NCBI GenBank assembly: GCA_029555085.1
Contig: JAKPTO010000026.1
Location: forward strand, 37,217-101,216
Source of the DNA: a bacterium
Lineage (GTDB): Bacteria; Patescibacteriota; Patescibacteriia; UBA1558; S5-K13
Reading direction: 5' to 3'
DNA: 64,000 bases
Shown here: positions 23,196-62,517 of the stretch, one piece after another
How positions within the stretch are numbered: the stretch's first letter is position 1
Layout of the letters: every line of letters begins with the position of its first letter
Notes under the pieces: model-generated
What the model was told of the DNA's origin: nothing
The model's database searches: none
What the model saw: the letters and a program-made list of their open reading frames with translations, nothing else
Made by a program: the position numbers and the translations under genes

Positions 23196-23272
23196 GGAGC
23201 GGTAGTTCAGTTGGTTAGAACGCCTGCCTGTCACGCAGGAGGTCGAGGGTTCGAGTCCCTTCCGTTCCGCCA
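23196..23272 (+). tRNA. tRNA-Asp (anticodon GUC), CCA encoded
   Basis: Manual fold: GGAGCGG acceptor, anticodon stem-loop CCTGC-CTGTCAC-GCAGG, T-arm GAGGG-TTCGAGT-CCCTT, 77 nt. Confidence 0.85.
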
Positions 23273-23442
23273 GAAAAATCTAAATATATAAAATAAATAC
23301 TCTATCAAATGTAGGGTTTTTATTTTTTACAAAAAGGGACGAGAAGTTTATCCCGCCGTATGGCGGGAAGTCCCTTCCGTTCCGCCAGAAGAATCTAAAT
23401 ATATAAAATAAATACTCTATCAAATGTAGGGTTTTTATTTTT
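23255..23442 (+). repeat. Tandem direct repeat of about 115 bp (about 1.6 copies) whose first copy begins inside the tRNA-Asp 3' end, with a GC-rich hairpin between the copies
   Basis: gtcccttccgttccgccagaa[a/g]aatctaaatatataaaataaatactctatcaaatgtagggtttttattttt occurs at 23255-23327 and 23370-23442. The hairpin tcccgcc-gtat-ggcggga lies at 23351-23368. Confidence 0.8.
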
Positions 23443-26049: not shown

Positions 26050-27303
26050 ATGTTTAATTTTCTAAAACAATGCGCCAAACTAGCTATTAATTCACTTCTA
26101 GCTAATAAGACAAGAAGTTTTTTGACTATGCTTGGAATTATAATTGGGGTGTCTGCCGTTATAATTATTACTTCAATTGGAAGCGGTGCTCAAGATTTAA
26201 TTCTCTCTGAAATTAAAATACTTGGAACTGATACTATAAGCATTATGCCTGGCAAAGCAGAAGAAAATGGACCACCAGCTTCTGTCATGGGGATAATAAT
26301 TACAACCCTAACATACGAAGATGCAAAGGCGCTTCTCGAGAAAAAAAATTCTCAGCACATTATTAATGTTGCTGCTTACTCAAACACAAATGCGAATGTT
26401 TCCTGGGGTTCCCAGAGTTCAAACTTTGATATAATAGGAACAAATGTAGGTCACTTAACAATGAATAATTTTAATGTCGAAAGTGGGAGATTTTTTACAA
26501 TCGACGAGGAGAGTAATTTGGCAAAAATAGCAGTTTTGGGTAGTCAAGCGAAAGAAGATTTATTTGGGGATTCTGATGCTATAGGAGAAAAAATAAAAAT
26601 TAAAAAACAGGTCTTTGAGGTAATAGGGATACTAGAAGAAAAAGGAACAGTTGCTTTTCAAAATTATGATGACAAAATTTTTATTCCTATAAAAACAATG
26701 CAAAAATTAATTGTTTCCTCAGATGCTGTTGGGATTATAAGAGCAAAAGTAGACAACGAGAAAAATCTTCCTCTTGCTATAAAAGATGCTGAAACTACAC
26801 TTCGCGAAAGACATGATATAAGAGATAATTCTGGAGAGGATGATGATTTTACTGTTAGTAGTCCCGCAGAAGCACTTGAGGCGATTGAAACTGTTACGGG
26901 TGCTTTAAAATTTTTCTTAGCTGCGATGGGGGCAATTTCACTTATTGTGGGTGGAATTGGAATTATGAATATAATGCTTGTAAATGTCAGCGAACGCACA
27001 AATGAAATAGGTCTTAGAAAAGCAATCGGAGCAAAAAATAACAATATCTTAGTTCAATTTTTAATAGAATCAACAATAATAACACTTTCTGGTGGAATTA
27101 TAGGAATAATATTTGGGATACTTGTTTCTCTGCTTGTTAGTGTTATTGCTCAAGCACTAGATTATAATTGGGGATTCCATGTTTCAATGCTCTCAATAAT
27201 TATGGGAATTATTGTTTCAAGCTCTATAGGAATAATTTTTGGACTATACCCAGCGAAAAAAGCTAGTAAACTTGATCCAATAGAAGCATTAAGATATGAA
27301 TAA
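26050..27303 (+). CDS. ABC transporter permease, FtsX/MacB family (with periplasmic domain)
   Basis: N-terminal TM segment, a large periplasmic domain and a C-terminal FtsX-type 3-TM bundle. Confidence 0.8.
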   Translation: MFNFLKQCAKLAINSLLANKTRSFLTMLGIIIGVSAVIIITSIGSGAQDLILSEIKILGTDTISIMPGKAEENGPPASVMGIIITTLTYEDAKALLEKKNSQHIINVAAYSNTNANVSWGSQSSNFDIIGTNVGHLTMNNFNVESGRFFTIDEESNLAKIAVLGSQAKEDLFGDSDAIGEKIKIKKQVFEVIGILEEKGTVAFQNYDDKIFIPIKTMQKLIVSSDAVGIIRAKVDNEKNLPLAIKDAETTLRERHDIRDNSGEDDDFTVSSPAEALEAIETVTGALKFFLAAMGAISLIVGGIGIMNIMLVNVSERTNEIGLRKAIGAKNNNILVQFLIESTIITLSGGIIGIIFGILVSLLVSVIAQALDYNWGFHVSMLSIIMGIIVSSSIGIIFGLYPAKKASKLDPIEALRYE

Positions 27304-28582
27304 TATGATAAGAATAAAAAATTCAATAAAACTCGCTATTAATTCAATGAAAACAAATAAGGGAAGAACTCTTCTTACTATTTTAGGTATGGTAATTGGT
27401 GTAATGAGTATTGTTGTGGTTTTTTCAGCTGGAGAGGGATTAAAGAAATTAATCATAAAACAAATTGAATCCTTCGGTACTGATATTATTGAAATTGAAA
27501 CAAGAATCCCTGTGGGGAAAAATAAAATGGGCAATGAATCACATGAATCAGCCATGAGTATGGCTCAAGGAGTTCGAATAACAACACTAACATTAAAAGA
27601 TGTAGAAGATATAAAAAAAATACCAAATATAGATGGCGGTTATGGTGCGTTAATGGGGCAAGAACTCGCAACCTATGGTAGTAAAAGAAAAAAAGCGTCT
27701 CTTTTTGGAGTTAGTGCTGATTTTATAAACATTGATAAAAGTGAAATAAATAAAGGTAGATTTTTTACCAATGCAGAAGATGAGTCGCTCACAAAGGTTG
27801 TAGTACTAGGCGCTGGAATAAAAGAAGATTTGTTTGGTGACTCAGATGCAATAGGAAATTATATAAATTTAGGAAAATCAAAATACAGAGTAATTGGAAT
27901 AATGAAAGAAAAAGGAGCTGCCATGGGAATGGACTTTAACAGATATATATATCTTCCCGTGCAAACTCTTCAAAAAAAAATCATGGGGATAGATTATTTA
28001 ATGTATACTATATATAAATTAAAAAACTCTGAAATCACAGATGAAACAGTAAAAGAAGTAAAAATTATCTTAAGAGAAAATCATGATATAAATAATCCCG
28101 ACGATATAGTGGGTGTAGATGATTTTACTGTTGTAACAATGGAAGAAATGATGAAAACCGTCAATAGTATTACAAAATATGTAACCGGCTTACTTCTTGC
28201 AATAGTAATAGTTTCTCTTGTGGTTGGTGGTGTGGGGATTATGAATATAATGTATGTAATAATAAGCGAAAGGACATTTGAAATTGGCCTTAGAAAAGCA
28301 CTAGGAGCAAAAAATAAAGATATTATGTGGCAATTTCTCATGGAAGCAATAATAATATCAATTCTAGGGGCAATTTTAGGTATTATTCTAGGTATTCTAC
28401 TATCACTACTTATAACTTTTGCTGCAAATGCTTATGGTCTTTCCTCGAGTTTTAAAATACCCATTTACGCTCTTTTCATATCTCTAATATTTGCGGTTTC
28501 CACTGGTCTTTTATTTGGTGTTTTTCCTGCAAAAAAAGCTGCGGAACTTAATCCAATAACAGCTCTTAGAAATAAAAATTAA
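27296..28582 (+). CDS. ABC transporter permease, FtsX/MacB family (second paralogue)
   Basis: Same architecture as the preceding gene, with an 8-nt overlap. Confidence 0.8.
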   Translation: MNNMIRIKNSIKLAINSMKTNKGRTLLTILGMVIGVMSIVVVFSAGEGLKKLIIKQIESFGTDIIEIETRIPVGKNKMGNESHESAMSMAQGVRITTLTLKDVEDIKKIPNIDGGYGALMGQELATYGSKRKKASLFGVSADFINIDKSEINKGRFFTNAEDESLTKVVVLGAGIKEDLFGDSDAIGNYINLGKSKYRVIGIMKEKGAAMGMDFNRYIYLPVQTLQKKIMGIDYLMYTIYKLKNSEITDETVKEVKIILRENHDINNPDDIVGVDDFTVVTMEEMMKTVNSITKYVTGLLLAIVIVSLVVGGVGIMNIMYVIISERTFEIGLRKALGAKNKDIMWQFLMEAIIISILGAILGIILGILLSLLITFAANAYGLSSSFKIPIYALFISLIFAVSTGLLFGVFPAKKAAELNPITALRNKN

Positions 28583-30154: not shown

Positions 30155-32746
30155 TTATTTACTAAAAACCAGTTTCTTGTCAAAAGAAAATCCGTTTACA
30201 TTTACCCGACAAATATAAACACCGCTTGAGCAAATTTTTCCTGAATCATCTTTTGAATCCCAGTTAATAGTTGCTGATTTGGATTTTGTGGGGACAAACT
30301 TTTTTACAAGTTGTCCTTTGATGTTATAAATCGAAATTTGAACTTCAGATGGTTCTTTTGTGTCTTCTATATCAAACATTAAGCTTACTGTGGAGTTAAA
30401 TGGATTTGGAAATATTTCAAATTTCTTTTTTAATAAATTCACTGTTTGACTTGGTGCGAGTATAAGTGACACATCATCAATCCAAACAGGAACATCTTGT
30501 TCTCCCAAATTCCATGAAATGCGTGCAATTCCAGAACTTGTGGCAGTAAAGCTCATTGTATAATTTTGCCAATCAGTTCCAGTGCTCACAACTTGCCATA
30601 GGCCAAAATTATTCCAGGGAGAATTTTCATTATATAACTCTACCTGGATTTGTCTTTGTGAGGTAGATTTCGCCCAGAAAGACAAAGTATAATTTTGACC
30701 CGATACAATGTTTAAATTCTGGTACAATTGAACCTCGAAGTGCAAACCATTTTGATTGGGATCAATAAATATTGAGTTATTCCCTGAATGGTAAATAGAA
30801 TTATCAATATAATAACTCGCTGTGGAATTGAGATCGCCAACCTCAAATGGTGCAAAATTTCCTGTTTCAAAACCAGGATTTATTATTAAATTATCTCCTT
30901 CTGTTTCCATATCAGATATTTTTTCAAAAACAACATTATCAAAATATTTACAACCAGCTGACTCGCCAATCATAAAATTCAAACGCGCTAATTGATCAGT
31001 TGTATTTGCTATAAAAATATACTGATATTTTTTCCAAGTTGAAGTGAGATTAATCTCTTTCCATAGACCATAATTATTCCATGGATCATTGTTGTTTTGT
31101 ATGCAAAATTTAATTCCCGATGCAGGATTGGATTTTGCCCAAAAAGAAACATTATATGACTCGCCTGATTCAATTTCAACAAGTTGCATAAGTTCTTCTT
31201 CGTAAAATAATCCGGAATCACCAATATTGATTTCTGCTTTAAAGTTTCCATCAACGCAATCACCGGATGTTATATCGAAACTTGCGCTATTTCTACTGTC
31301 ATTTAAAATCCAATAATTACAAATTCCAGAATCAAATCCACCGTCTTCGAAGTCACCACCCTGATAATCAACCATTCCACCACCAGCAAAATATTGAATA
31401 TTTTCTCCGGATTGAAATGAATTAACATCGCTATCGGAAACTTCTAAAACATTAGCAAAATTAAACCCATAGGTATTGAAGGTTGATTCGTCTATAATGA
31501 GACGACGCAATCCATTTTCTATATAATAACAAGCTGGACCTGGACCAGAAATTAATTTTCCATCCATGATTTTTTCATAGCTTACAAATGGCGCAATCTG
31601 ATAATAATTTAAAACATTTTGAGTAACTACTATATTAAAATTTGAATGATAATAGTTAATCATATAAACATTGTCAGAAAGCAATCTCAGAAGAATCTTT
31701 TGTCCAGTGTATGAAGAAGAAACTTCAATCCCTCGTTTAATAACATATCGTTCGTTCATGTTATTTACATTTTGCAATACTGTTCCGTATGGATAATCGC
31801 TTGAAGATGTAAGTTCAGATCCTTCCGCAAATTGAGATAAATATGAACTTGTTGTTGGAATCCAAACATCCGCAGAGTATCCTAATTGTTGCCAATTATT
31901 TACCCTTCGCTTCACAATTGTCGTAGAATTGTTTGACTGATAATCAAATACCCATCTCTGAGAATTCTCATCATAAACACAAGTTCCAACTTTTGGACTA
32001 ATATCAGGACCAATTGAAAATGAATTGAATTCTTCTTGACTAATTTCAACTGCATCAGACCAGTCAAATCCCCAAGTATAAAAAGGTGTCTCACTAGTAA
32101 ATCGTTGCATTTGCCTGTCACGAATCCAATAATAATTTGGAGTATTAGTTACATGAACCAATAAATCATCTGGTAGAATTCTTGGTTGTGAAACAACAAT
32201 GCCTGGGAGTGATGGCGGGTTTGATACGAAATAATGTTTATCTGGATTACAACCATTATTATATTGTTGTGTGTTGTTACTATACCAACCATAGGGATCA
32301 ATTGGTTCATTATTATAGTAAACACCAAAGTGAAGGTGAGGGTTGGTTGAATAACCAGTGTCACCCACCTTTCCTATAAATTGTCCTTGGTAAACAAATT
32401 CTCCGACAGAAACAGTTGCAGTATGGTAAAGCATGTGCGCGTATATTGTTTTGTAACCATTTCCATGGTCTATTTTCACATAATTACCATAATCCGTTCC
32501 TGTTCCATCTGGAATATCTCTTTGCACCGCAATAACCTGTCCACCATAAGCAGAAAGAATTCTTGTTCCCTCTACTGCGGAATAATCAATTCCGTAATTA
32601 TAGTTATAACTATAACTAGGTGGATATTGCCAACCAGATGAAATTATAAAATTTCCTTCAATGGGGAGTGTGAATATATGATCCACACCGAACAAATAAC
32701 CACAACACATTGTGATTATTACTAGAATTGTCATGAGAGTTTTCAT
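30155..32746 (-). CDS. Secreted M23-family metallopeptidase with a large beta-rich middle region (CBM-like repeats) and a T9SS-type C-terminal sorting/Ig-like domain
   Basis: Signal peptide; M23 motifs HGNGYKTIYAHM and NPHLHFGV. The C-terminus FPNPFNSTVSLMF...ISIYNIKGQLVKKF...SGVYICRVNVNGFSFDKKLVFSK matches the Por secretion-tail pattern. Confidence 0.7.
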   Translation of the reverse strand: MKTLMTILVIITMCCGYLFGVDHIFTLPIEGNFIISSGWQYPPSYSYNYNYGIDYSAVEGTRILSAYGGQVIAVQRDIPDGTGTDYGNYVKIDHGNGYKTIYAHMLYHTATVSVGEFVYQGQFIGKVGDTGYSTNPHLHFGVYYNNEPIDPYGWYSNNTQQYNNGCNPDKHYFVSNPPSLPGIVVSQPRILPDDLLVHVTNTPNYYWIRDRQMQRFTSETPFYTWGFDWSDAVEISQEEFNSFSIGPDISPKVGTCVYDENSQRWVFDYQSNNSTTIVKRRVNNWQQLGYSADVWIPTTSSYLSQFAEGSELTSSSDYPYGTVLQNVNNMNERYVIKRGIEVSSSYTGQKILLRLLSDNVYMINYYHSNFNIVVTQNVLNYYQIAPFVSYEKIMDGKLISGPGPACYYIENGLRRLIIDESTFNTYGFNFANVLEVSDSDVNSFQSGENIQYFAGGGMVDYQGGDFEDGGFDSGICNYWILNDSRNSASFDITSGDCVDGNFKAEINIGDSGLFYEEELMQLVEIESGESYNVSFWAKSNPASGIKFCIQNNNDPWNNYGLWKEINLTSTWKKYQYIFIANTTDQLARLNFMIGESAGCKYFDNVVFEKISDMETEGDNLIINPGFETGNFAPFEVGDLNSTASYYIDNSIYHSGNNSIFIDPNQNGLHFEVQLYQNLNIVSGQNYTLSFWAKSTSQRQIQVELYNENSPWNNFGLWQVVSTGTDWQNYTMSFTATSSGIARISWNLGEQDVPVWIDDVSLILAPSQTVNLLKKKFEIFPNPFNSTVSLMFDIEDTKEPSEVQISIYNIKGQLVKKFVPTKSKSATINWDSKDDSGKICSSGVYICRVNVNGFSFDKKLVFSK

Positions 32747-32934
32747 TTTTACCTCCTATGAAAATTTCTCAATTTCTTTAAAAATGTTTCGAGAATAAAA
32801 AATCGCCAAAAAAATCTGATAAATCAAATTAAGTTTGGCGACCCTGATTTTGAAATTATAAAAACCCAAGTCTCTTGTTAAAATTTAACAAGAATTAATA
32901 AATCGCTTTTCCTCGCTTTTATTTAATTGTTAAT

Positions 32935-33480
32935 CTACTTATTTATTAAAAAATCTTTAAATATACCCAAACTACCCACTCTAAATAAACCTATATTTTC
33001 TACTGTTTCGCAACCAACCATCACTGGGGCATATTCGTCTCTACATGTGCTAGCTCTACAATTATCACCTGCATATTTATACTCTACAAACATATTTTGC
33101 TTTATTAGTTGCTCTGTTAATGCAAACGGGAAAACACTACTAACAGAATAAATACCTCTTGGAACCTCTAATCTGTAACCTTTTTTATTTCTATATTTAG
33201 AATTAATTACTTGATTAGGTGTGCAATAATAATTATTTGTTTCTATATTTTTCGCGCAAACCAAAGATCCATCTGGAACAATTTCTGATGGATAGCTTAA
33301 TTCTCCCTCAATTGCCCCCATACAATTTTCTGATTGTATTTTTGTTGCTTCTCTTTCATCTGAAATACTCTGTGTATTGTTTATAATATTTTCTTGATTT
33401 TTACTATCATAAATTACAATATATATAACAAGTGATATAAATAGTATTATTGAAATAATTATTAATATTTTTTTCCACAT
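32935..33480 (-). CDS. Cys-rich secreted/membrane-anchored hypothetical protein
   Basis: N-terminal TM segment; about 10 Cys residues in the ectodomain. Confidence 0.4.
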   Translation of the reverse strand: MWKKILIIISIILFISLVIYIVIYDSKNQENIINNTQSISDEREATKIQSENCMGAIEGELSYPSEIVPDGSLVCAKNIETNNYYCTPNQVINSKYRNKKGYRLEVPRGIYSVSSVFPFALTEQLIKQNMFVEYKYAGDNCRASTCRDEYAPVMVGCETVENIGLFRVGSLGIFKDFLINK

Positions 33481-33634
33481 AAATTTATTTAATTTTATTA
33501 ATTATAAATTAAAAATACTTTTATAAATTAAAGATACTTCGATTTTTAAAAAATGTAAATACCAATTATTAACATAAAAAAAGGCGTCGTATTACTACGA
33601 CGCCTTTTAGATTTTAATAAAAATAACCAAATTT

Positions 33635-36600
33635 TTATTTTTTATATAAAGTGGAAACAAATCTTTGCATTCTGTCATTCAATACATCTAAAGCAATTCT
33701 TGTACTTTCTGGTGCGTTTTTTGGTATGCTCTTTAATGTGAGTTCCCAAAATTTTATCTCAAAATTATTTAACTTACTACTACCTGTTCTTTCCAGCTTT
33801 ATATCGCTTAATAATTTAAATGCTTTATCGTGTACAATGTCTTTATTAGCACTCTCCGTAATTATTCTATATAATTCAGTACCTCGTTCTCGGCTATAAA
33901 AAAATGTTCCAACTGAACTAACATCTGATGTCTGTTTAATAATGGAACCATTTTCATCAAATACTTGTTTAAGTGTTCCGCTTCTTCCCGCCTCCTTAAA
34001 AGTAACGAGCTTTGTATAATCATCGAGCCATTTCTCTGTTATTGTTCCTGTATTTGTTTTTATAATTTCTATATTTGGCTCGGAAATCAATTCTTGAAAA
34101 TTATTCTCTGTAATTTGCTCTAAGCCGGGACTTTGTGGATCAAGATCTGCATAATATTCCCCATGGTCTTTTTGAATTTCCAACACCCGATTATTACCAA
34201 CATTCGTTTCAAATTTAACTGGAATATTGTCTTCAACATCTTTCAATGCCTCTTCCAACTCAGAAAATGTATTAACTCTTTTAACTCCTAGTATCTCTGT
34301 TTGATTTTGAGCTATAGGCACACGATCTAATATATCTTCGACAGGTGTCCGTCCTGATATACCTTTGGTAGGCACATGATCTGGCTCAATAGTCAAATTT
34401 TGAACTGAGGATACTTGGTCTGATATATCTTCTATATTTGACTCAGAAATCAATTCTTGAAAATTATTCTCTGTAATTTGCTCTAAACCAGGGAGATTAG
34501 GATTAAAGTCTGTGTAATATTCTCCATTGTCCTCTATAATCCGTACAACATTACCACCAATTTCTACATCAGCCGAAGCACCTGCCTCTTTAAACTGAAA
34601 TACTTCTTTCAAATCAGAAAAATCCCTAACCACTGGAACCTCTGATGTTTCTATAGGTACATTAGTCAATGTATCTGGGGTGACTTCTATACTTTCTGTA
34701 GGTACATGATCTAACATATCTTCAGTGGGTACATGATCTGGTTTAATAACTGGGATTTCTGTATTACCATTATTAAACTCATCTTGCAACCTCGCTATTT
34801 GAAAATTTAACTCCTCTCCAGTATTTTGCTGTTGTGAAAGTAATTCTCGAGTTGCATTTAGTTCCTCAGATATCTTCGCTTGTATATTGGATGGAATATT
34901 TGGATCATCTAGCATTTCTTCTAATCTGGTAATTGATAATTTTGACTTTATTATATCATCATTTAACTCAAAATATTTACTTTGTAGCTCTTCTATTTGC
35001 TCAGGATAATTTGACTTAACTATATCTTCTACGGGTAGCACTTCTCTTACATTTGTTGGTCTGACAATTTCTGAAACATTAGGACCATGTTTGGGCTTAA
35101 TGACGCCCATTACATTATCTACATAATGTTTGTAAAAACTTTCATAAGACTTGGGTTTGACAAAGGCAAAAACCTCGTTAGTTTCTGGATCAACGACAAC
35201 TCTTGCTCCCGGCGCAACAACATTTGCATCAAAATTTTTAAGAATCAATGGTTCGCCATTAGGTCCAGAAGTAACAAGTGTCATTTTTGAACCACGAGGC
35301 ATGCTTATACCCAAAGTTTCAGAAACACTAGAGCCCTTAGCTACTGGAACGCCTTGATCTGCCAACTCTTGAATACGTTGAGGGTTCAAACCCTTAATAT
35401 CTTGAAAATTAGATACATCTGATTTTTTTGGAGAAAAACTTTGTGATGCCTCATTTATATCATCCGCTCGACTTGTTGAGATAACCTGATCTTTTTTACC
35501 AAAAACAGAGTTCTTCAAATTCTCAAAAGACTTTCCTAATCTCTCCATTCTTGAAACTATATCAGCATAACTTACAAAATTATCTTTCATGTTTTCCAAT
35601 ACATTACCCTGAGTAAATGTTTTGGTAAAACATTGTACCATGTTATCCACACTTGCACCAGATGTTTGTATTCCTGATAAAGCTTGCGTTCCCATACCAA
35701 GAGCCATTAATAATTCCCCCCAAGCTCTCATCATGGTAGTTTTTTTATCAAAACCTTTTAATTTTCTAACATCACTATGTTTTTTTAATTTATCATTTTC
35801 TACATAAAAACTTGATTCATATCGTTTTCCAGATAATCCATAATATGTTTCTAAAAACATTGTTTTAAATGCATCTCCAAGATATTGATGTGCTTTCATT
35901 TTTTCGCCAACCTTATTCCAGGAATATTCCTTTTGATATTTCAATGCTGATTTATCTAATTTTCCACCAAATGCAAATATTCCATACATAGCACCTCGAA
36001 GTCCAGCCGCACCTATCCCGCCACCAAAAACCATAGCCGTATTAAGTGCATCTTTTACAAGTATACTTCCATTTACTGTTCCTTGTATATAATCTTGCAA
36101 AATATAATCTATTTTTTTTGACCTTTGTTTTCTTAAATCATTTTTTGATTCCAAATTCGTAAGTAGAACTTTGTTTAATCTATTTCTCATTGTCATCTGA
36201 TCATGATCAGAAATAATATACAATAACTTTTCTTTATCTGTTAATGAACCTTCGTTAAACTTTTTTTCTATTTCTTGTCTTTTTTCTTTTGGTAAATCAT
36301 AATAATTCTGAGATCTGGCATTCTTTATCATTTCATTATATTGCATTGCTTTTTCTTTTACATCATCTACAGAAATTTTTTCATTTTTTATAAAATTTTC
36401 TCTAATTTTATTATTCTCCATTGAAAGAGTTTTTATTTTACGCTCTAATTCTTCTCTTTCTGTTTCATCTTTTGTGTTTTTATATATCTCTACATATCTA
36501 GATATTGCAGCAACTCTTCTTTTGTAATTATCATCTTGGTAAAGCTTCTGAAATTTTTCCTTATTAGAAGAAATCAACTCTGCTAAATCGCTTGTTTTCT

Positions 36601-38758
36601 TTTCTGCCTCAACCCTATCTTTCTTTGTTTCACTTTTTTGATCAAAATATTTATACACATCTGTTCTCTTGCCAAGAGCAAAATTAATTTTTCCTCCACT
36701 TATTTTATCAAGTCCATGCGCAAGTCCAGCGCCAATCCAATCACCAATGGCTTTAACACCAAACATTGAACCGATAATATTATATATTCCCTTACCTGTT
36801 GCTGCGCATAAGGCCCTCTTTTCTTCTTTTTCTTCTGGTGTTTTTGGTTTCTTAAAAATCAAATCAAAAGTTTTCTTAACCCTATCCTTAAATTTAACTT
36901 TTATCTGTTCTTCTTTTAACTCTTCATTGATAATATGTTCTTCCGGCGTATTAGATTGAATTTCTTTTTCTGATTCAAAATTATTGTAAGTAGATGTCCA
37001 TTTTATTTCTTGTCCCCATTCTGGACTGGTATGGGTAGATGTCCATTTTGCTTCCTGTCTCTCTCCTTGACTCGTATTAGTTTCCCATTGTTGTTCTTGA
37101 TTAGTATTAGATATTGTCTCTGGTTTTATTTCTTTTATTCCAAGTACATTGCTTATATATGTATTTGTATTTTCAAGAAGACTTGGTGCTATTTTTGTCA
37201 CAAAATTTACAATAAAAGACTCATTACCCTCCCTACCCTCATCTTCTACTCTATCCTTAGCTTCTAAAAATTTTCTTACCTCAATAATCTGATTATCGCT
37301 TAGTCTACTCAACTTGTACTTTAAAATATCAACTCCGGTATTTTCTAATTCTAAATGTTTATTAAAAAATTTTTCCTCTGTTTTCGGCAAATCGTCTTCA
37401 AAGACTTGTTTTTCTTTAATAACCTCCTCTTCTGATTTTTCAAAATTCTCTGATTTTGAAGTCTCTTCTTTTTCTGATTTAATCTTTTCTTCTGAATTTC
37501 CTAACAACTCTTTAACTTTATCTCTTAAACCGTATGCTCTAGTAACGAAATTAATATGATAGCTTTCGTGTCTCACTTGATCAATTATCTGCTTCAATTC
37601 CTCTGGACTATATTTTTCTTTGGTACCATCTATTGTCCCAATTTCTTCTATGGCAGAAAATAATTCCTCAAAATTTTTAGCATTGCTAATTTTTGCTTTT
37701 TGATTTTCTAGTAACTCTACAACCTTATCTCTTAAACCGTATGTTCTAGTAACATAAGTATTGCGAAGATCTCCATTCCTTACTTGGTTAATGATCTGCT
37801 TCAATTCCTCTGGACTATATTTTTCTTTGGTACCATCTATTGTCCCAATTTCTTCTATGGCAGAAAATAATTCCTCAAAATTTTTAGCATTGCTAATTTT
37901 TGCTTTCCTATCTTCTTCTGTTTCTATTGTATTTTTTTTATTTTTCCCCTCAATTTCTTTTTTAGATTCACTTTCTCTCATCATTTCAATGAGTTTTTTT
38001 GCATGCATTTTAGCCCATTGAATTTGTCCTTCATTATTTTCATAATCTAAACCTGCTTCTGGGTTAGGATGATTATCTTTTTCCCTATTTTCTATATCAT
38101 GTTGTTTCCAACTCATAAGAATTTTATACGCAATAGCTGTTTCTAAATCATTTGTAGTATCTCTATACATGTCATAATGTTTGTAATAATCATTAAAAAT
38201 GCCTTTATAATCTATACCCGTTTCCATATCTGGATTTTCAAAAAAATTCTTATACACTTTTTCAACTTCAGATTCCATATATTTATAATCTTCTGGATTG
38301 TCTGGTAATTCTGTTTTTATAACTCTCTCTGGAACCTGATCTAAAACATTGAGATCTTTTTCTGATTCAAATTTTTCATCTATTTTTTCTTGTCCATCTT
38401 CGGGGATTTCTTTCGCATACTCGTCTGATGCTGATATAATTTCTTTTGCCCTTTTTATTCTCTTATTAATCTCAGGGACTAATTTTCTTAAATCTTCTAA
38501 ATAATTAAAAAAAAGAGAACGATCTTCATCAAATGTTTCTTGGTCACTCGATATAAGTATATATTGATCTGCACTAAATGATATATCCGACCTAATTTCT
38601 TCGAGTAATTCTTCACCCCTATTTAATATTTTCTCTAAAGCTTGTTTCTTAAATCTTATGAATCCATCTGGGTTATTATTATCTATAAATTCTCTGTATT
38701 GCTCATTCTTATCAACTAAATTTTTTAAATTCTCTGTAGGTTGTTTTATTTTATCCAT
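33635..38758 (-). CDS. Giant hypothetical protein (1707 aa) with internal about 70-aa and about 100-aa repeats and glycine-zipper hydrophobic segments
   Basis: A single uninterrupted ORF. KAKISNAKNFEELFSAIEEIGTIDGTKEKYSPEELKQII occurs twice. The C-terminus has duplicated GEYY.D..P..PGLEQITENNFQELISE modules. Two Gly-rich segments (GxxxG runs) are present. Confidence 0.55.
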   Translation of the reverse strand: MDKIKQPTENLKNLVDKNEQYREFIDNNNPDGFIRFKKQALEKILNRGEELLEEIRSDISFSADQYILISSDQETFDEDRSLFFNYLEDLRKLVPEINKRIKRAKEIISASDEYAKEIPEDGQEKIDEKFESEKDLNVLDQVPERVIKTELPDNPEDYKYMESEVEKVYKNFFENPDMETGIDYKGIFNDYYKHYDMYRDTTNDLETAIAYKILMSWKQHDIENREKDNHPNPEAGLDYENNEGQIQWAKMHAKKLIEMMRESESKKEIEGKNKKNTIETEEDRKAKISNAKNFEELFSAIEEIGTIDGTKEKYSPEELKQIINQVRNGDLRNTYVTRTYGLRDKVVELLENQKAKISNAKNFEELFSAIEEIGTIDGTKEKYSPEELKQIIDQVRHESYHINFVTRAYGLRDKVKELLGNSEEKIKSEKEETSKSENFEKSEEEVIKEKQVFEDDLPKTEEKFFNKHLELENTGVDILKYKLSRLSDNQIIEVRKFLEAKDRVEDEGREGNESFIVNFVTKIAPSLLENTNTYISNVLGIKEIKPETISNTNQEQQWETNTSQGERQEAKWTSTHTSPEWGQEIKWTSTYNNFESEKEIQSNTPEEHIINEELKEEQIKVKFKDRVKKTFDLIFKKPKTPEEKEEKRALCAATGKGIYNIIGSMFGVKAIGDWIGAGLAHGLDKISGGKINFALGKRTDVYKYFDQKSETKKDRVEAEKKTSDLAELISSNKEKFQKLYQDDNYKRRVAAISRYVEIYKNTKDETEREELERKIKTLSMENNKIRENFIKNEKISVDDVKEKAMQYNEMIKNARSQNYYDLPKEKRQEIEKKFNEGSLTDKEKLLYIISDHDQMTMRNRLNKVLLTNLESKNDLRKQRSKKIDYILQDYIQGTVNGSILVKDALNTAMVFGGGIGAAGLRGAMYGIFAFGGKLDKSALKYQKEYSWNKVGEKMKAHQYLGDAFKTMFLETYYGLSGKRYESSFYVENDKLKKHSDVRKLKGFDKKTTMMRAWGELLMALGMGTQALSGIQTSGASVDNMVQCFTKTFTQGNVLENMKDNFVSYADIVSRMERLGKSFENLKNSVFGKKDQVISTSRADDINEASQSFSPKKSDVSNFQDIKGLNPQRIQELADQGVPVAKGSSVSETLGISMPRGSKMTLVTSGPNGEPLILKNFDANVVAPGARVVVDPETNEVFAFVKPKSYESFYKHYVDNVMGVIKPKHGPNVSEIVRPTNVREVLPVEDIVKSNYPEQIEELQSKYFELNDDIIKSKLSITRLEEMLDDPNIPSNIQAKISEELNATRELLSQQQNTGEELNFQIARLQDEFNNGNTEIPVIKPDHVPTEDMLDHVPTESIEVTPDTLTNVPIETSEVPVVRDFSDLKEVFQFKEAGASADVEIGGNVVRIIEDNGEYYTDFNPNLPGLEQITENNFQELISESNIEDISDQVSSVQNLTIEPDHVPTKGISGRTPVEDILDRVPIAQNQTEILGVKRVNTFSELEEALKDVEDNIPVKFETNVGNNRVLEIQKDHGEYYADLDPQSPGLEQITENNFQELISEPNIEIIKTNTGTITEKWLDDYTKLVTFKEAGRSGTLKQVFDENGSIIKQTSDVSSVGTFFYSRERGTELYRIITESANKDIVHDKAFKLLSDIKLERTGSSKLNNFEIKFWELTLKSIPKNAPESTRIALDVLNDRMQRFVSTLYKK

Positions 38759-38775
38759 ATTTTTGTAATTAAATT

Positions 38776-38964
38776 TTATTTATTTAAAAATTTCTTTCTA
38801 ATATTTTCTAATTTTTTCTGAGTCATCAATGTTTCTATTTTTTTTACAATATCGTTTCTTTTTTTTGAAATAATAGATAATTCCGCCATTATAATATTTA
38901 ATTCTTTATCAACTTCCTCTATAAGATCCTTATAATTCTTTATTTTTGTTTTTATTTCTTCCAT
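38776..38964 (-). CDS. Small coiled-coil hypothetical protein
   Basis: 62-aa ORF with heptad-like charge pattern. Confidence 0.3.
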   Translation of the reverse strand: MEEIKTKIKNYKDLIEEVDKELNIIMAELSIISKKRNDIVKKIETLMTQKKLENIRKKFLNK

Positions 38965-38974
38965 GTATTTATAT

Positions 38975-39292
38975 TTATTTTTTACTCCTTTTAAAAATAG
39001 AATCTAGTTCTGTTATTGTTTTTTCATCAATTTTTTTCTCTTTCTCGGCATATTCAATTGCCAATTGTTCTAATTTATTTTCCAATTCAATATTTAATAA
39101 GTCTAATTGCTCAGATGCAAATTTATTCTCAAGCGTCATTGCTACTTCTGCTACCTTTTCCGGAGGGAGATTATTTAATATCTCTATAAATAATTCCTTT
39201 GCATCATCGGATATATTCATAGAAGCTAACAAAAAACCCAGCTTTTTACCAAAACCGCCTATCAATTCTTGGTCATTTATTTTTTTGCTCAT
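38975..39292 (-). CDS. Hypothetical protein
   Basis: 105-aa ORF, tightly packed upstream of the previous gene. Confidence 0.35.
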   Translation of the reverse strand: MSKKINDQELIGGFGKKLGFLLASMNISDDAKELFIEILNNLPPEKVAEVAMTLENKFASEQLDLLNIELENKLEQLAIEYAEKEKKIDEKTITELDSIFKRSKK

Positions 39293-39296
39293 ATTG

Positions 39297-40073
39297 TTAT
39301 TTTAATAATAAATTATACAATTTTTTATATTTTTTGTCAATAAATAAAAAATAACTCGCAAATAATATAAAAATTAAAGCCATTATTTGCGGAAATCTAA
39401 TTCCGAAAATATGAAGTGTTGTATCAATTCTTAAAAATTCCATAAAAAACCTAATAATTCCATAACCAAAAACATACAACAAAAATATTCTTCCTTCTTT
39501 GTAATGTCTCTTAAATACTCTCATTAGTATAAAAAATAAAATTAAATTTAAAATAAATTCATATGCAAATATGGGATGATGATGAAACCCTGTTTTTTGT
39601 ATATATATTGCCCATGGCACATTTGAAACTTTTCCATACAATTCTGAGTTAAAAAAATTACCCCATCTCCCAATTGCTTGCCCAAGTGGAACAACAAGAG
39701 CAAAAATATCTAAATATTTTAGCGAATTCAATTTATGCTTTTTACAATAAAAATAAACAGTTAATATTCCAGCTATTATTGCTCCTTGAATTGCTATACC
39801 GCCACGCCAAATTCTAAAAATCTCCCAAAAATTATACTTATAATATTTAAAATCGAAAAACAATACTGAGTAAATTCTAGCCCCAATTATTCCAAAAATT
39901 ATAATATAAAAATATAAATTTTCTAAATGATTTTTATCAATTTCACTGCCCCTGGATAATCTTTCTATTAAATACATACACAATAAAATACCAAAAACTA
40001 CTATAATTCCGTAAAAATATACATTGATTAACCCAAGGCGCAGTAATATTGGATGTGGATTTGCATTTATCAT
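39297..40073 (-). CDS. lgt: Prolipoprotein diacylglyceryl transferase
   Basis: Lgt signature GRWGNFFNSELYG in a polytopic membrane protein. Confidence 0.85.
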   Translation of the reverse strand: MINANPHPILLRLGLINVYFYGIIVVFGILLCMYLIERLSRGSEIDKNHLENLYFYIIIFGIIGARIYSVLFFDFKYYKYNFWEIFRIWRGGIAIQGAIIAGILTVYFYCKKHKLNSLKYLDIFALVVPLGQAIGRWGNFFNSELYGKVSNVPWAIYIQKTGFHHHPIFAYEFILNLILFFILMRVFKRHYKEGRIFLLYVFGYGIIRFFMEFLRIDTTLHIFGIRFPQIMALIFILFASYFLFIDKKYKKLYNLLLK

Positions 40074-40783
40074 TGATTTGTTGTATTTTTAATTGCTTCT
40101 AAAATTTGTTCCCAAATTTGTTTATTTATAACACCCTGAAATAACTCCCCGTTTACAAAAAATGTTGGCGCTCCATTTACACCCGCTTTCAAGCCCAATT
40201 GAACATCAGAATAAATAAGGGATTCATATTTTTTCGAAAGATAACAGTCTTTAAATTTATTAACATCAAGATGAATATCCTTTGCAAACTGCATAAATGC
40301 AGATTCTCCTAAAATTCTCTGATTTTCAAATAATTTATCGTGCATTTCCCAAAACTTTCCTTGTTCATTTGCACAGCTTGATGCTAATGCGGGAGTTATA
40401 TCATCCGATATTGGAAAATATCTGTATATTAATTTTACACTATCTTTATTATCATTGACAAAATTTTTTAAATCTACATATGCAGACAAGCAGTATGGAC
40501 AATTAAAATCTGAAAACTCAACTATCGTCATGATTGGAGATGAGGCCCCTCTCTGAGGAGAAGTTTTAGATTCCAACTCTTCTCTTTTAACTTTTTCTTT
40601 TGGGGTATTTGATGTGTTGCTATATGCAGAATAAAGAGTTAAGTCACTATTATGCATAATAATTGAACCGTCTTCTATTGCTTTTTTATAATCAAATACT
40701 TTTTTGACAAATAAAATAGCTACTGTCAAAAAAAAGATTAAAAAAACCCCTAAGAATATATGCCATTTTTTAATTTTAATCAT
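40070..40783 (-). CDS. DsbA-family thiol:disulfide oxidoreductase (membrane-anchored)
   Basis: N-terminal TM segment; thioredoxin-fold CxxC motif FSDFNCPYC. Confidence 0.75.
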   Translation of the reverse strand: MIKIKKWHIFLGVFLIFFLTVAILFVKKVFDYKKAIEDGSIIMHNSDLTLYSAYSNTSNTPKEKVKREELESKTSPQRGASSPIMTIVEFSDFNCPYCLSAYVDLKNFVNDNKDSVKLIYRYFPISDDITPALASSCANEQGKFWEMHDKLFENQRILGESAFMQFAKDIHLDVNKFKDCYLSKKYESLIYSDVQLGLKAGVNGAPTFFVNGELFQGVINKQIWEQILEAIKNTTNQ

Positions 40784-40789
40784 ATGATT

Positions 40790-42214
40790 TTATTTATTTA
40801 TAAAATTTTTTTCTAAATTCCATGCTAATTTCAAAACATTTTCCTCGTCCATATATTTTCCCATAATTTGTAATCCTATTGGCAAGTCATTTGATTTTAG
40901 AGGTATTGAAATTGCTGGAATATCCGCGATACTTGCTGAAACTGTAAATATATCAGAAAAATACATTTTTAGTGGATCTTTTAATTTTTCTCCGATTTTA
41001 AAAGCTTTCGTTGGTGTGGTTGGAGTAATAATAAAATCTACATTTTTAAAAATTTCGTTCAATTTATTTTTTATATCGCCTTGAACTAACATTGCTCTAT
41101 TATAATAAGCTTCTTTATATCCACTTGATAAAACATAATTTCCTATTAAAATTCTTCTTTTAACTTCATCTCCCATACCCATTGTTCTATTTTTTTTGTA
41201 TGCATCGTCTAAAGAATCATACACCTTGGAATCAAAACCATATCTAAACCCATCATATTTCGCTAGATTTGAGGAACTTTCCGCTGGCTGAATTATACAG
41301 TAGGCAGCAAGAGCTTCATCAATAAAAGACATGTTTATTTCTTTTATTTTTATTTTTGCTCCCCTTAAATCTTTAATTAATTTGTCAAAAGACTCTAATA
41401 TGTTTTTATCTGTTACAAAATTATCAAAATTTTTTGGTATTCCTATTGTTATATTTTTTATTTTTGATTTTATATTACGAATATTAACTTTTTTAGTATT
41501 TAAATTTGTTGCATCATCGTCGTCTTTACCAACAATTACATTAAATAAGATTGCACAATCAAGAGAAGAATTAGCAATTGGTCCTATTTGATCAAATGAG
41601 GAGGCAAGTGAAATAAGTCCATTTCTTGAAATTCTTCCATAGCTTGGTTTTAATCCACAAACTCCGCAAAAACTAGCCGGCTGTCTTATGGAACCGCTAG
41701 TATCACTTCCTAAAGCAACAGCACAATGACCAGAGGCAACTGAAACAGCGCTACCACCAGACGAACCACCAGAAACTCTTTTTCTATCATGAGGATTTAA
41801 TACAGGACCAAAAAATGATGTCTCATTCGATGATCCCATTGCAAACTCATCCATATTTGTTTTACCAAGAATAATAACACCACTTTGTTTTAATTTTTTA
41901 ATAACATATGCATCGTACGAAGCCACATAATTAGACAACATTTTTGAACCAGCAGTTGTCTTGTGATCCTTAACTAAAATATTATCTTTTATGGCTATCG
42001 GAACTCCTTCTAATAATTCTAGTTTTTTACCGCTTTTAATTTTTTCATCAATTTTTTGTGCTTGTTCTATTGAATCATTCTCAAAAATAGTAATAAAATC
42101 ATTCAAATTATCTGACTTAATTTTTTTTATACAATCTTTTATCAAATCAACACAAGAGATTATTTTATTGTTTAACTCTCTATTAATTTTCTCTATTGTA
42201 AAATTATTATTCAT
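40790..42214 (-). CDS. gatA: Glutamyl-tRNA(Gln) amidotransferase subunit A
   Basis: Amidase signature GGSSGGSAVSVASGHCAVALGSDTSGSIRQPASFCGVCGLKPSYG; gatC lies immediately upstream. Confidence 0.9.
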   Translation of the reverse strand: MNNNFTIEKINRELNNKIISCVDLIKDCIKKIKSDNLNDFITIFENDSIEQAQKIDEKIKSGKKLELLEGVPIAIKDNILVKDHKTTAGSKMLSNYVASYDAYVIKKLKQSGVIILGKTNMDEFAMGSSNETSFFGPVLNPHDRKRVSGGSSGGSAVSVASGHCAVALGSDTSGSIRQPASFCGVCGLKPSYGRISRNGLISLASSFDQIGPIANSSLDCAILFNVIVGKDDDDATNLNTKKVNIRNIKSKIKNITIGIPKNFDNFVTDKNILESFDKLIKDLRGAKIKIKEINMSFIDEALAAYCIIQPAESSSNLAKYDGFRYGFDSKVYDSLDDAYKKNRTMGMGDEVKRRILIGNYVLSSGYKEAYYNRAMLVQGDIKNKLNEIFKNVDFIITPTTPTKAFKIGEKLKDPLKMYFSDIFTVSASIADIPAISIPLKSNDLPIGLQIMGKYMDEENVLKLAWNLEKNFINK

Positions 42215-42218
42215 AGAT

Positions 42219-42491
42219 TTACAAAACCTTCTTTACTCTTAGTAAATTATCCTTTTTGTCAGCAAATTGTGATATAAGTAAATCGCTTTGGGATGTTTTA
42301 ATTTTATCTTTTCTTAAATTTGTATATTTACTATTATTGGATTTTATTTTTTCTGAGATTGGATACTGCTGAACTTTTTTTACATAATTTAAAATATTGT
42401 TAATATCTTTCAATAAAGTACTTTCCTCTTTTTTAGAAAGTTGTATTTTTGAAAACTCAGCAAGTTTTAAAATTTCTTTTTTCGTTAACAT
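42219..42491 (-). CDS. gatC: Glutamyl-tRNA(Gln) amidotransferase subunit C
   Basis: 90-aa protein with the GatC-like N-terminus MLTKKEILKLAEFSKIQLSKKE. Confidence 0.7.
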   Translation of the reverse strand: MLTKKEILKLAEFSKIQLSKKEESTLLKDINNILNYVKKVQQYPISEKIKSNNSKYTNLRKDKIKTSQSDLLISQFADKKDNLLRVKKVL

Positions 42492-42495
42492 GTTT

Positions 42496-44511
<2,016 letters not shown>

Positions 44512-45348
44512 CTAATTAAAATCTTTTAACAAAGATTCTTCAGAAAATATAACATAATCAAATAACCCAGATAAAGGATCTTCTCTTCTTAAACTAACAG
44601 ACAATGCTTGTCTATTAGCATTTTCTATATCTCCTCCGGGATATTGACCAATTGTTTTTATTACATATATATTTTTAAACTTCAGAGAATTATTATCTCC
44701 ATCAAATGCTTGAATTTTTAAATCATGAATATCACAAAATAAAGCTTTGACTCTAAATTGATAAATCTTATTTGGATCTAAACTAGAACCGCCAATTTCA
44801 GTTATTGAATCACTTGACTCGTTTAGTAAAGATTTATAAACATGTTGCGATTCGCCCCCCGCGCTCCAAACAATACTTCCTCCGGACTTCCATTCATTTA
44901 CTGTAAGTTCTATCCAAGAACTATTTGGCGACTCTTCGGTGGAACAATTATCCTCCCAAGAAATTGAAAGATAAGATAGATTACTCGCCTCCCCTAAATC
45001 CTCTAAATTGTAAAGGTCGAATTGAAAAAATTGATTTTTTTTGAGACCTATATTTATACTTTGAATATCGTCATCTACTGTTCTAATTATGGAACTATCA
45101 AAGCCATTAAAAAAATAACTGTCGGTATTTAATTTTTCTGGAATTATGTTTTTTTGCCTTAAATAGTATATTGCTTGTTCATTGCCTGATTCTGCAGCAT
45201 AAAAAGCAATATTTGCATTATCAACGCTTTTAGATTGCTTAATTTGCCTTAAAGAGAATCTTGATACATAAAGAACACTTACCAAAATAGAAGTCATAAT
45301 TAAAAACGCTAATAAAAGAGCTGATCCATTTTTAACTTTAATTGTCAT
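44512..45348 (-). CDS. Pilin-like / minor pseudopilin protein
   Basis: N-terminal hydrophobic anchor; last gene of the pseudopilin operon. Confidence 0.4.
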   Translation of the reverse strand: MTIKVKNGSALLLAFLIMTSILVSVLYVSRFSLRQIKQSKSVDNANIAFYAAESGNEQAIYYLRQKNIIPEKLNTDSYFFNGFDSSIIRTVDDDIQSINIGLKKNQFFQFDLYNLEDLGEASNLSYLSISWEDNCSTEESPNSSWIELTVNEWKSGGSIVWSAGGESQHVYKSLLNESSDSITEIGGSSLDPNKIYQFRVKALFCDIHDLKIQAFDGDNNSLKFKNIYVIKTIGQYPGGDIENANRQALSVSLRREDPLSGLFDYVIFSEESLLKDFN

Positions 45349-45350
45349 AA

Positions 45351-45911
45351 TTATTTTATATAATTTCTTGCACTTACTGTTGTTTGTAATAAAATTTCTG
45401 CACCATCTCTATTATCAACAAATGTCATAACAATTGTTACAAGTGTTTGCTTGTTTAAATCCCCAGCAAGCTTTTCTGTTGATATAGTTGGGCTAATATA
45501 AAAATACATATCTTTCACGCTAACACTATTTCCAGTTACATCACTCCAACCAGAATCATTATATTTAACTTGCAGAAAAGTATTGTTTTTTCCTCCAACT
45601 AATTTTACTTGTTTTCGAAAAAAAATCTTATTACCGGAATTATCTTCTAGAGCCAACTCTGTTATTGGGTTTTTTACTGTAAAATCTGGATAATAAGAAT
45701 AATCAACATTACCCAATCTTACTTCTCTAGATATATAATCCATTGCGAACCTCATCTCATTTTGTACCCTTTGCATTGCTATAATCTTTGTATTTGCCTT
45801 CATTGTTAATATGTACACACCAATACAAATCGTTGAAACAATACTAAAAATAGCAGTCGCGACAATCATTTCAAGTAATGTAAATCCTGGTTTTTTATAT
45901 ATTTTTTCCAT
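45351..45911 (-). CDS. Type IV pilin/pseudopilin with prepilin-type N-terminal cleavage/methylation motif
   Basis: KKPGFTLLEMIVATAIFSIV. Confidence 0.7.
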   Translation of the reverse strand: MEKIYKKPGFTLLEMIVATAIFSIVSTICIGVYILTMKANTKIIAMQRVQNEMRFAMDYISREVRLGNVDYSYYPDFTVKNPITELALEDNSGNKIFFRKQVKLVGGKNNTFLQVKYNDSGWSDVTGNSVSVKDMYFYISPTISTEKLAGDLNKQTLVTIVMTFVDNRDGAEILLQTTVSARNYIK

Positions 45912-59570: not shown

Positions 59571-59574
59571 ATTT

Positions 59575-60237: not shown

Positions 60238-60265
60238 TTTTTTATCAAATATTGAATATTAAATT

Positions 60266-62513: not shown

Positions 62514-62517
62514 AATA

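Follow-up and report, generated by a model that had tools for sequence, protein, structure and literature searches.

The 1707-aa ORF and its locus

A large part of bacterial diversity belongs to the Patescibacteria, which live attached to other microbes, and almost none of the large proteins specific to this lineage has a known role. We analyzed a 64,000-nt stretch of DNA from a member of this group (contig JAKPTO010000026.1, positions 37,217 to 101,216 of the forward strand; hereafter the window), which carries an open reading frame (ORF) of 1707 amino acids (aa) on its minus strand. The product, HNZ86101.1, is a Patescibacteria-specific giant modular protein, of which a ~500-aa helical central module and a ~100-aa alpha/beta domain form the invariant core. 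On the minus strand, a prepilin peptidase gene and pseudopilin genes are followed by the genes for LigA, GatC and GatA, for a DsbA-like protein and Lgt, and then by two small ORFs (orf105 and orf62) and the 1707-aa ORF (Table 1). Beyond it lie the genes for an N-terminally membrane-anchored protein of 181 aa containing 6 Cys (Cys181), an M23 peptidase with CBM_4_9 domains and an S11 DD-carboxypeptidase. The window also encodes a member of the T4SS_pilin family, which is typical of the Candidate Phyla Radiation (CPR), together with pseudopilins, a prepilin peptidase and rubrerythrin, and very few of its genes are biosynthetic. The GatA protein of a close relative clusters, at ≥90% identity, with a protein named 'Patescibacteria group bacterium'. 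The G+C content of ~29% is constant through the locus, and the 46 window ORFs use the standard genetic code, ending in 38 TAA, 5 TAG and 3 TGA codons.

A preliminary description, made from the sequence without database searches, had taken the ORF for a single gene and had named two findings that would overturn its account, frameshifts pointing to a fusion of several genes and homology to a housekeeping family. The ORF is intact, ATG-initiated and free of stops, and we found no homology of the 1707-aa ORF to a housekeeping family. Since the identical protein has been deposited and is recorded on 18 contigs, the ORF is not an assembly or frameshift artefact, and positional orthologues of 1479 to 2142 aa occur in four assemblies. 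The database representative (P0001) differs from the window ORF by 1 residue. We dropped the idea of strain-level hypervariation, the protein being the same on all 18 contigs. As first described, no hydrophobic stretch resembling a signal peptide is present at the N-terminus and no catalytic motif is recognizable (0 Pfam families at E ≤ 0.01). Searches of the whole ORF against Pfam, NCBIfam, PADLOC and the PDB sequences gave no match, and fold comparison of its modules with the PDB gave no specific one. Only 2 of the 1707 residues are Cys, despite the dsbA gene in the neighborhood.

The gaps between lgt, orf105, orf62 and the 1707-aa ORF are 4, 10 and 17 nt. The promoter-like TTGACA-17-TATAAT element in front of orf105 is the sole 12/12 match within 32700-45500 (12.8 kb), and the whole window contains two perfect TTGACA-N17-TATAAT elements (6435 and 39340, both on the minus strand) when ~0.19 were expected from first-order Markov simulations. 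In the relatives L001, L003, L087 and L099, the small ORF is likewise preceded by a similar element. This conservation may partly come from Lgt coding constraint, as the element overlaps lgt in the near relatives. Because of the promoter-like site, the terminator-like hairpin and the short gaps, orf105, orf62 and the 1707-aa ORF probably form a three-gene transcription unit of their own.

Table 1. Features of the 1707-aa ORF and its transcription unit (positions in the window; aa, residues of the 1707-aa protein).
Feature	Residues (aa)	Position	Strand	Remarks
Promoter-like TTGACA-17-TATAAT		39312..39340	-	Just upstream of orf105, overlaps last lgt codons
orf105, small, probably helical protein		38975..39292	-	105 aa; linked to central module
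orf62		38776..38964	-	62 aa; between orf105 and 1707-aa ORF
1707-aa ORF		33635..38758	-	ATG start, no internal stop; NCBI HNZ86101.1, 'hypothetical protein [bacterium]'
N-terminal bundle, three long helices	7-115	38414..38740	-	
'WAKMHA' domain (working name), all-helical	136-275	37934..38353	-	pLDDT ~90-97
Two tandem 69-aa 'R1' repeats	284-421	37496..37909	-	Helix-helix-beta-hairpin-helix-helix
Acidic low-complexity linker	430-611	36926..37471	-	Short conserved motif, W-containing mini-repeats
Conserved central module	612-1110	35429..36925	-	Both Gly-rich stretches inside (aa 650-690, 897-935)
Small alpha/beta domain	1120-1215	35114..35401	-	Motif QIxELAxxGxxVxKGSSVSETL
Two ~115-aa 'R2' repeats	1338-1573	34040..34747	-	Core IGGxxVxxxxDxGEYYxDxxPxxPGLEQITENNFQELISE
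C-terminal region	1574-1707	33638..34039	-	Relatives detected only among closest sequences
Intrinsic-terminator-like hairpin		33579..33608	-	13-bp stem, 6 G-C pairs, T-run; 27 nt past stop codon

Conserved core and its small partner ORFs

To find relatives of the protein, we performed an exhaustive HMMER search with aa 1-1200 as query against 1.84 billion representatives. The 519 significant matches fell into three classes: proteins with the central module and the alpha/beta domain (about a dozen clusters), proteins with WAKMHA, and proteins with the R1 repeat, the latter accounting for most of the matches. In the alignment of 10 central modules, 36 columns are invariant, many of them polar, and the recurring motifs include G(K/Q)RTDxYKY, KDALNT, an R...Y pair in the second Gly-rich stretch, K(E/N)YSWN and ETxxGLxG. 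A charged helical region of ~200 aa separates the two main Gly-rich stretches, and a third, amphipathic Gly-rich helix lies at aa 1010-1030. The central-module family is uncharacterized and is defined here by an alignment (A6); the window ORF shows its hallmarks, a full-length match over ~500 aa, the alpha/beta domain and an orf105-type ORF immediately upstream.

The link between orf105 and the central module was seen in every locus where it could be read. A scan of Joint Genome Institute (JGI) metagenomes with the central-module profile yielded 13 loci, 12 of which had upstream DNA, and in all 12 an orf105 homologue (104-117 aa, 35-67% identity) lies 4-15 bp upstream of the central-module gene. 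The same adjacency is found in L084, L087 and L088, the last being a short contig that starts at the small ORF. Conversely, orf105 is absent from L001 and L003, whose large protein has another centre (hereafter type B). Neither Pfam nor the PDB contains a match to orf105, and PADLOC gave only weak ones (E 1e-3 to 3e-3, 15-17 bits). The second small ORF, orf62, is kept at 37-50% identity in L001, L003, L084 and L087. Its C-terminal motif LxxLRKKFLNK resembles the tail (LSDLRQTIK) of the 114-117-aa distant orf105 homologues, which suggests that orf62 is a split or duplicated tail of an orf105-type gene.

AlphaFold2 (AF2) modeled aa 612-1230 from 10 sequences with a mean predicted local distance difference test (pLDDT) score of 63. 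The helical region between the Gly-rich stretches reached 80-92 and the alpha/beta domain 70-81; a beta-hairpin was also modeled, and the Gly-rich stretches themselves scored below 50. The model of aa 1-430, from 34 sequences, had a mean pLDDT of 86 and comprised the three-helix bundle (aa 7-115), WAKMHA and two R1 units. The 'cytoskeletal-like' character raised as a possibility at the outset would fit these mostly helical models.

Repeats and exchangeable modules

The two repeats of about 70 aa noted initially correspond to a 207-nt tandem duplication (37480-37686 / 37687-37893, DNA 85-89% identical), which encodes 69-aa R1 units that are ~80% identical (aa ~284-352 / 353-421). The C-terminal pair is a duplication as well, but its copies, first put at about 100 aa, extend over ~115 aa (R2, aa ~1338-1452 / 1457-1573), with 53-65% aa identity in the core and a DNA core (34061-34177 / 34424-34540) that is 80% identical. 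Related copies of R2, which lies beyond the aa 1-1200 used in the exhaustive search, were found only in the near relatives P0002, P0003 and P0006. R1, on the other hand, is widespread and often present in 2-4 tandem copies, one R1 protein coming from Candidatus Moranbacteria. Among 30 R1 proteins scanned, the co-occurring Pfam families were RamC_N (3), PP2C (2), HopA1 (1), AvrPphF-ORF-2 (1), Transglut_core (1) and DnaJ (1); the HopA1 profile matches the R1 protein P0042. A 17-residue match in the PDB between R1 and designed beta-trefoils was discarded as a composition artefact, and PDB searches with profiles of the C-terminal part (A1), R1 (A2), the WAKMHA proteins of group B described below (A3) and orf105 (A9) returned nothing meaningful.

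WAKMHA (aa ~135-270) is 29-49% identical to the C-terminal ~130 aa of many proteins of 500-750 aa, among them envelope proteins of about 530 aa, which we call group B. These start with a hydrophobic or lipobox-like signal (FLGSC in one of them) and a conserved region resembling an ectodomain; a hydrophobic stretch rich in Pro and Leu and a cluster of Arg residues (RRRR) come next, and WAKMHA forms the end. The Arg cluster suggests that their C-terminal ends face the cytoplasm, and WAKMHA would thus be cytoplasmic-facing in group B because it follows the hydrophobic stretch and the Arg cluster. WAKMHA itself matches nothing in Pfam or the PDB. An OmpA-like ectodomain, considered for group B from a TSPEG...N..L...RA motif, was not confirmed by any Pfam or PDB profile. 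The acidic linker contains the motif NFIVNFVTKIAPSLLENTNTY at aa 514-534, which is common to P0014 (50% over 70 aa); apart from this motif nothing else was detected in aa 430-611. P0014 (L085 6227-10232, L086 1-2833), found in the metagenome assemblies that also yielded P0002, combines WAKMHA with the NFIVNF...TNTY motif. Its gene directly follows a gene for a PilB-type T2SSE ATPase; a general link between WAKMHA and PilB ATPases was rejected, as it does not hold for P0071, P0040 and P0053 (L103, L104, L105).

The 1707-aa protein is a mosaic of exchangeable modules, since P0002 and P0003 share its N-terminus but not its centre, while P0006 and P0008 share the centre but not the N-terminus. The N-terminal part in common covers 356 aa with P0002 and ~260 aa with P0003; P0006 and P0008 share aa 612-1215 at 38% identity overall and 51% over the conserved stretch. 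The three-helix bundle, WAKMHA, R1, HopA1 (in one orthologue) and R2 are the parts swapped or added among relatives.

A fixed slot across deep divergence

The comparison among related genomes that the preliminary description had proposed showed that four assemblies keep the slot, with large proteins of 2142 (P0002), 1479 (P0003), 1535 (P0006) and 1806 aa (P0008). The proteins of the flanking genes are 82% (LigA), 79-80% (Lgt), 82-86% (S11), 65-71% (M23) and 54-62% (Cys-rich protein) identical to those of L001 and L003. The central region cannot be aligned with P0002 and P0003 even profile to profile. Remote homology of the type-A centres, such as that of the window ORF, and the type-B centres was therefore rejected: in hhalign only the alpha/beta domain aligns (probability 99.5%, E 3e-23), making it the sole part common to all positional orthologues.

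The ligA-gatCA-dsbA slot is kept even where LigA identity has fallen to 42-44%. At that distance the central module is 33-37%, GatA 40-43% and DsbA 21-25% identical. With an identity comparable to that of GatA and above that of DsbA, the core is therefore not hypervariable on this sequence comparison; the accessory ends alone vary. In L105 (GCA_030698865.1, 5001-9318), LigA-GatC-GatA are followed by a 662-aa WAKMHA protein, directly after it a 774-aa protein with two hydrophobic Gly/Ala-rich segments, and then a DUF5663 protein, the first two of these adjacent genes being a split counterpart of the fused window ORF. A scan with Lgt found no close relatives among the GTDB species representatives, the best Lgt matches being 41-43% identical.

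The downstream neighbors are less constant. The Cys-rich secreted protein and the M23 peptidase do lie where they had been placed, directly after the large gene, but this adjacency is conserved only in the closer relatives L001, L003, L084 and L087, whereas in distant relatives the large ORF is followed by a 110-aa ORF and DnaG. In the window, the strong terminator-like hairpin separates the 1707-aa ORF from the Cys-rich and M23 genes. The M23 peptidase gene (30155-32746, minus strand) encodes two CBM_4_9 domains and a C-terminal Por_Secre_tail/FlgD_ig match, a sorting domain of the type IX secretion type that is here probably just an Ig-like domain. The peptidase with CBM_4_9 is conserved in L001, L002, L003, L084 and L087.

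Gly-rich stretches

The two Gly-rich hydrophobic stretches are present at aa 655-683 and 909-932, as first placed, and are accompanied by a third, weaker one at aa 1010-1030. They had been likened to glycine zippers that insert into membranes or form pores. The small-xxx-Gly pattern does exist (A918xxxG922xxxG926; also G663xxxG667, G672xxxG676 and G678xxxG682), but the membrane reading gained no support from the computations. On the summed Hessa scale, which is crude, the best 19-residue windows scored +5.97, +6.77 and +6.99 kcal/mol, with similar values in the type-A homologues, and so lack the hydrophobicity for spanning a bilayer. Control transmembrane (TM) helices ranged from -2.3 to +2.6 kcal/mol in Lgt, and the anchor of the Cys-rich neighbor scored -6.2 kcal/mol. 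In the second stretch, the conserved positions G913, A917, R921 and Y925 lie on one face, the first two nearly invariant and the Arg and Tyr invariant; in the first stretch, G667, G676 and A677 are nearly invariant. Judged from these residues, the G913-A917-R921-Y925 face resembles a surface for packing or function more than a zipper turned to lipid. In the 1707-aa protein, then, TM helices of the classical kind are unlikely at these stretches. Helices that are interfacial or re-entrant are an alternative, as are surfaces for tight helix packing and segments whose insertion occurs only after a conformational change.

Comparison with known systems

The closest named protein is P0002 (NCBI 'T3SS effector HopA1 family protein [bacterium]', 2142 aa). 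It occupies the same slot, between lgt/orf62 and the Cys-rich protein, and shares the three-helix bundle, WAKMHA and one R1 (44% over aa 20-356) as well as the alpha/beta domain and R2 (28%). It differs by a HopA1 Pfam match (aa 510-623, 44.7 bits), a centre that cannot be aligned and the lack of orf105. The 1707-aa ORF gave no Pfam match to HopA1 (PF17914). The label is not transferable to it, because the name of P0002 rests on a single HopA1 match without counterpart in the window ORF.

Membrane-active proteins with glycine zippers include the VacA-type GxxxGxxxG channels and toxins of the type VI and type VII secretion systems (T6SS, T7SS) such as Tse4 and TspA. The 1707-aa ORF resembles them in its small-xxx-small runs within moderately hydrophobic helices and in the lack of a Sec signal; unlike them, it has non-TM-like energies and Arg and Tyr on the conserved face, and no sequence or fold match connects it to them. 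T7SS LXG toxins with small helical Lap partners, T6SS effectors with Eag chaperones and translocators of type III secretion systems (T3SS) with class II chaperones offer another parallel, as one or two small helical ORFs upstream co-vary with a large protein that has hydrophobic helices. However, we found no homology of the 1707-aa ORF to them, and its position is fixed within the core genome, not part of a variable island. Pfam detected no marker domain of such secretion systems (LXG, PAAR, MIX etc.) in it, and the window contains no T3SS, T6SS or T7SS genes. EzrA is a membrane-associated bacterial scaffold built from spectrin-like three-helix bundles. The likeness to scaffolds of this type is generic: the 1707-aa ORF has no N-terminal TM anchor and no sequence relationship to them, and its WAKMHA, R1, central and alpha/beta modules are unrelated.

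The T4SS-like (type IV secretion system) cluster of the window (58158-63962, minus strand) comprises a gene for a 470-aa T4SS_pilin (PF18895) protein (58158-59570), a gene for a DsbA-like protein, three ORFs and, by the window end, a gene for a TraG/VirB4-like P-loop protein (63114-63962). Proteins that have no signal peptide might be exported through it. T4SS with pilin subunits have been described in Patescibacteria and may export proteins, their substrates being unknown; those of Saccharibacteria have neither coupling protein nor relaxase (Wang et al., 2023; PMC10633639). The window resembles these genomes in encoding a T4SS_pilin protein and a TraG/VirB4-like ATPase ~20 kb from the 1707-aa ORF. 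It differs in that the T4SS genes are not adjacent to the ORF, and nothing we found links the two.

As for polymorphic toxins, the protein has no toxin domain, its conserved part is central, the downstream gene is independent of the module type and synteny is deep. As for phage tape-measure proteins, the neighbors are housekeeping and envelope genes, with no matches in viral contigs or GenBank phages. PADLOC-DB 2.0 has no defence family for the 1707-aa ORF, orf62, Cys181, P0006 or P0014.

Other features of the window

A second giant ORF (14813-20356, minus strand, 1847 aa) lacks a Pfam match and features one TM-like anchor around aa 148, a GDKGDKGE run of collagen type and repeats within its DNA (17713/18391 and 14852/14966); we found no kinship between it and the 1707-aa ORF. 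A reverse transcriptase gene (RVT_1; 53210-54427, minus strand) overlaps an ABC-transporter gene at its start, and past this lies a PLD-like gene. We rejected the action of a diversity-generating retroelement on the 1707-aa ORF, as the window contains no repeat of the template/variable (TR/VR) type of at least 50 nt. A 74-nt direct repeat (23254-23327 / 23369-23442, plus strand, 99% identical) includes in its first copy the 3' end of a tRNA-Asp gene (23196-23272). It resembles an attachment-site duplication, but its copies are merely 115 nt apart. Two adjacent MacB/FtsX-type permease paralogues (26050-27303 and 27296-28582, plus strand; DNA repeats 26936/28212 and 26077/27329) follow genes for an ABC ATPase and an HlyD-like adaptor and are kept in four closer relatives (L001/L002, L003, L084, L087).

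Possible roles of the 1707-aa protein

We tentatively favor, as a possible rather than a probable explanation, that the 1707-aa protein is a membrane-proximal helical scaffold on the cytoplasmic face, docked via WAKMHA and R1 to partners that it shares with other Patescibacteria proteins. The N-terminal 600 aa would be cytoplasmic, given the missing signal peptide and the place of WAKMHA behind a hydrophobic stretch and Arg residues in group B. Most probably the whole protein would remain on that side, as none of its segments reaches the hydrophobicity of a TM helix inserted by the translocon. Weakly hydrophobic Gly/Ala-rich helices would hold the long, mostly helical scaffold at the inner membrane face, and WAKMHA would dock it to a partner also used by the envelope proteins of group B. 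The R1 repeats would serve as adaptor modules, as they may for the R1-bearing PP2C, kinase-like, J-domain, HopA1 and ADP-ribosyltransferase (ART)-like enzymes, and the orf105 and orf62 proteins would bind or stabilize the central module. Envelope organization, division and host attachment are candidate end roles of such an assembly. Several observations weigh against this explanation. The term scaffold comes solely from a generic helical architecture predicted by the models, for which fold searches gave no specific match. R1 accompanies HopA1 and domains of the AvrPphF type, which are known above all as secreted effectors, and a T4SS-like cluster lies 20 kb away. While the flanks are 54-86% identical among close relatives, the N-terminal 260-350 aa of the large protein are 41-44% and the parts in its C-terminal third 25-28% identical, and such fast-changing ends are more typical of proteins exposed to hosts or phages than of internal scaffolds. 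Finally, the Hessa sum is position-independent and missed the Pro-rich putative TM segment of the group-B proteins, and the Gly-rich segments of P0002-P0005 are more hydrophobic (+1.4 to +2.9 kcal/mol), so that true membrane hairpins are possible in the family.

Export from the cell, along the lines of the secreted effector or toxin first suggested, is rather unlikely, although it accounts for some of these points. The protein would then be a translocator or effector that leaves without a Sec signal via a Patescibacteria-type T4SS or a machine resembling type IV pili or type II secretion systems (T4P/T2SS), its Gly-rich helices entering the membrane of a host or target; orf105 and orf62 would be cytoplasmic chaperones shielding the central module, and R1 and WAKMHA would be recognition modules. 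The absent signal peptide agrees with this, and the Gly-rich helices have the intermediate hydrophobicity of helices that need solubility before insertion, yet +6 to +7 kcal/mol is far from known membrane hairpins and the conserved helix face bears the invariant Arg and Tyr. Chaperone-like partners are suggested by the tight coupling of the small helical ORFs upstream and their co-variation with the central module; downstream, no immunity-like gene co-varies, the Cys-rich neighbor being 54-62% identical whatever the type of the central module. The company of R1 elsewhere (HopA1, AvrPphF-ORF-2, a transglutaminase-like core) and the HopA1 domain of the positional orthologue P0002 point to effectors, but the 1707-aa ORF has no toxin or enzyme domain of its own. 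A T4SS-like cluster is encoded within the window, and the type found in Saccharibacteria may export proteins (PMC10633639). The termini diverge quickly, which favors export, whereas the core changes at about the same low pace as LigA and GatA and keeps its core-genome slot beside housekeeping genes, and the protein is identical on 18 contigs. An integral membrane protein, in which the Gly-rich stretches are genuine TM helices or hairpins and the ~200-aa charged region or the C-terminal half lies outside the cell near the peptidoglycan-remodeling enzymes encoded downstream, we consider unlikely. All family members do have two or three Gly/Ala-rich stretches, as has the unrelated type-B centre (P0002, P0003), where they are more hydrophobic, but no segment of the window ORF or its type-A homologues has a TM-like insertion energy. 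AF2 confidence is low exactly on these stretches; however, they contain invariant K, D and R, and each half-stretch has merely 13-17 residues. The neighbors are envelope-related (dsbA, lgt, M23 and S11 peptidases, pseudopilins), and still the protein has just 2 Cys beside dsbA.

Cargo of a mobile element, such as a tape-measure-like phage protein, a polymorphic toxin cassette or an anti-phage defence gene, is very improbable. Size, repeats, Gly-rich stretches and the nearby M23 peptidase recall tape-measure proteins, and the mosaic recalls polymorphic toxins, but synteny with housekeeping genes holds in all relatives, down to 42% LigA identity, base composition is flat across the locus, no phage structural genes or integrase lie nearby, and viral contigs, phage and plasmid collections and PADLOC contain no match. 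A mobile-element origin is essentially excluded. The boldest idea, which appears improbable to us, is that R1, WAKMHA and the central module are the signature of a network for protein delivery specific to Patescibacteria, with the R1 proteins (HopA1, ART-like, PP2C, kinase-like, protease-like and J-domain cargo) as substrates of the unusual patescibacterial T4SS or of a T4P-like machine and the 1707-aa ORF, with its orf105 and orf62 chaperones, as the translocator, its Gly-rich helices entering the membrane of the host bacterium.

The protein was already known as a deposited hypothetical protein, and its modules fall into no described family. The definition of the modules, the linkage to orf105, the deep synteny and the domains that accompany R1 are new. 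The protein fits the broad kind of large modular envelope-associated proteins of episymbiotic bacteria, with no family membership established. What was a 'hypothetical protein' is now defined as part of a three-gene unit, with four recurrent, uncharacterized modules (WAKMHA, R1, central and alpha/beta), a strictly linked small partner and a fixed slot across deep divergence. The most useful lead is R1, which has hundreds of matches and stands beside effector- and signaling-type enzyme domains; it may mark a common interaction hub or export route in Patescibacteria. If the cytoplasmic-face scaffold that we favor proved merely structural, the protein would be of specialist interest. If it were exported as a translocator, it would matter directly for the question of how episymbionts manipulate their hosts, and a delivery network, if true, would provide the first candidate repertoire of effectors and a translocator for episymbiotic CPR bacteria.

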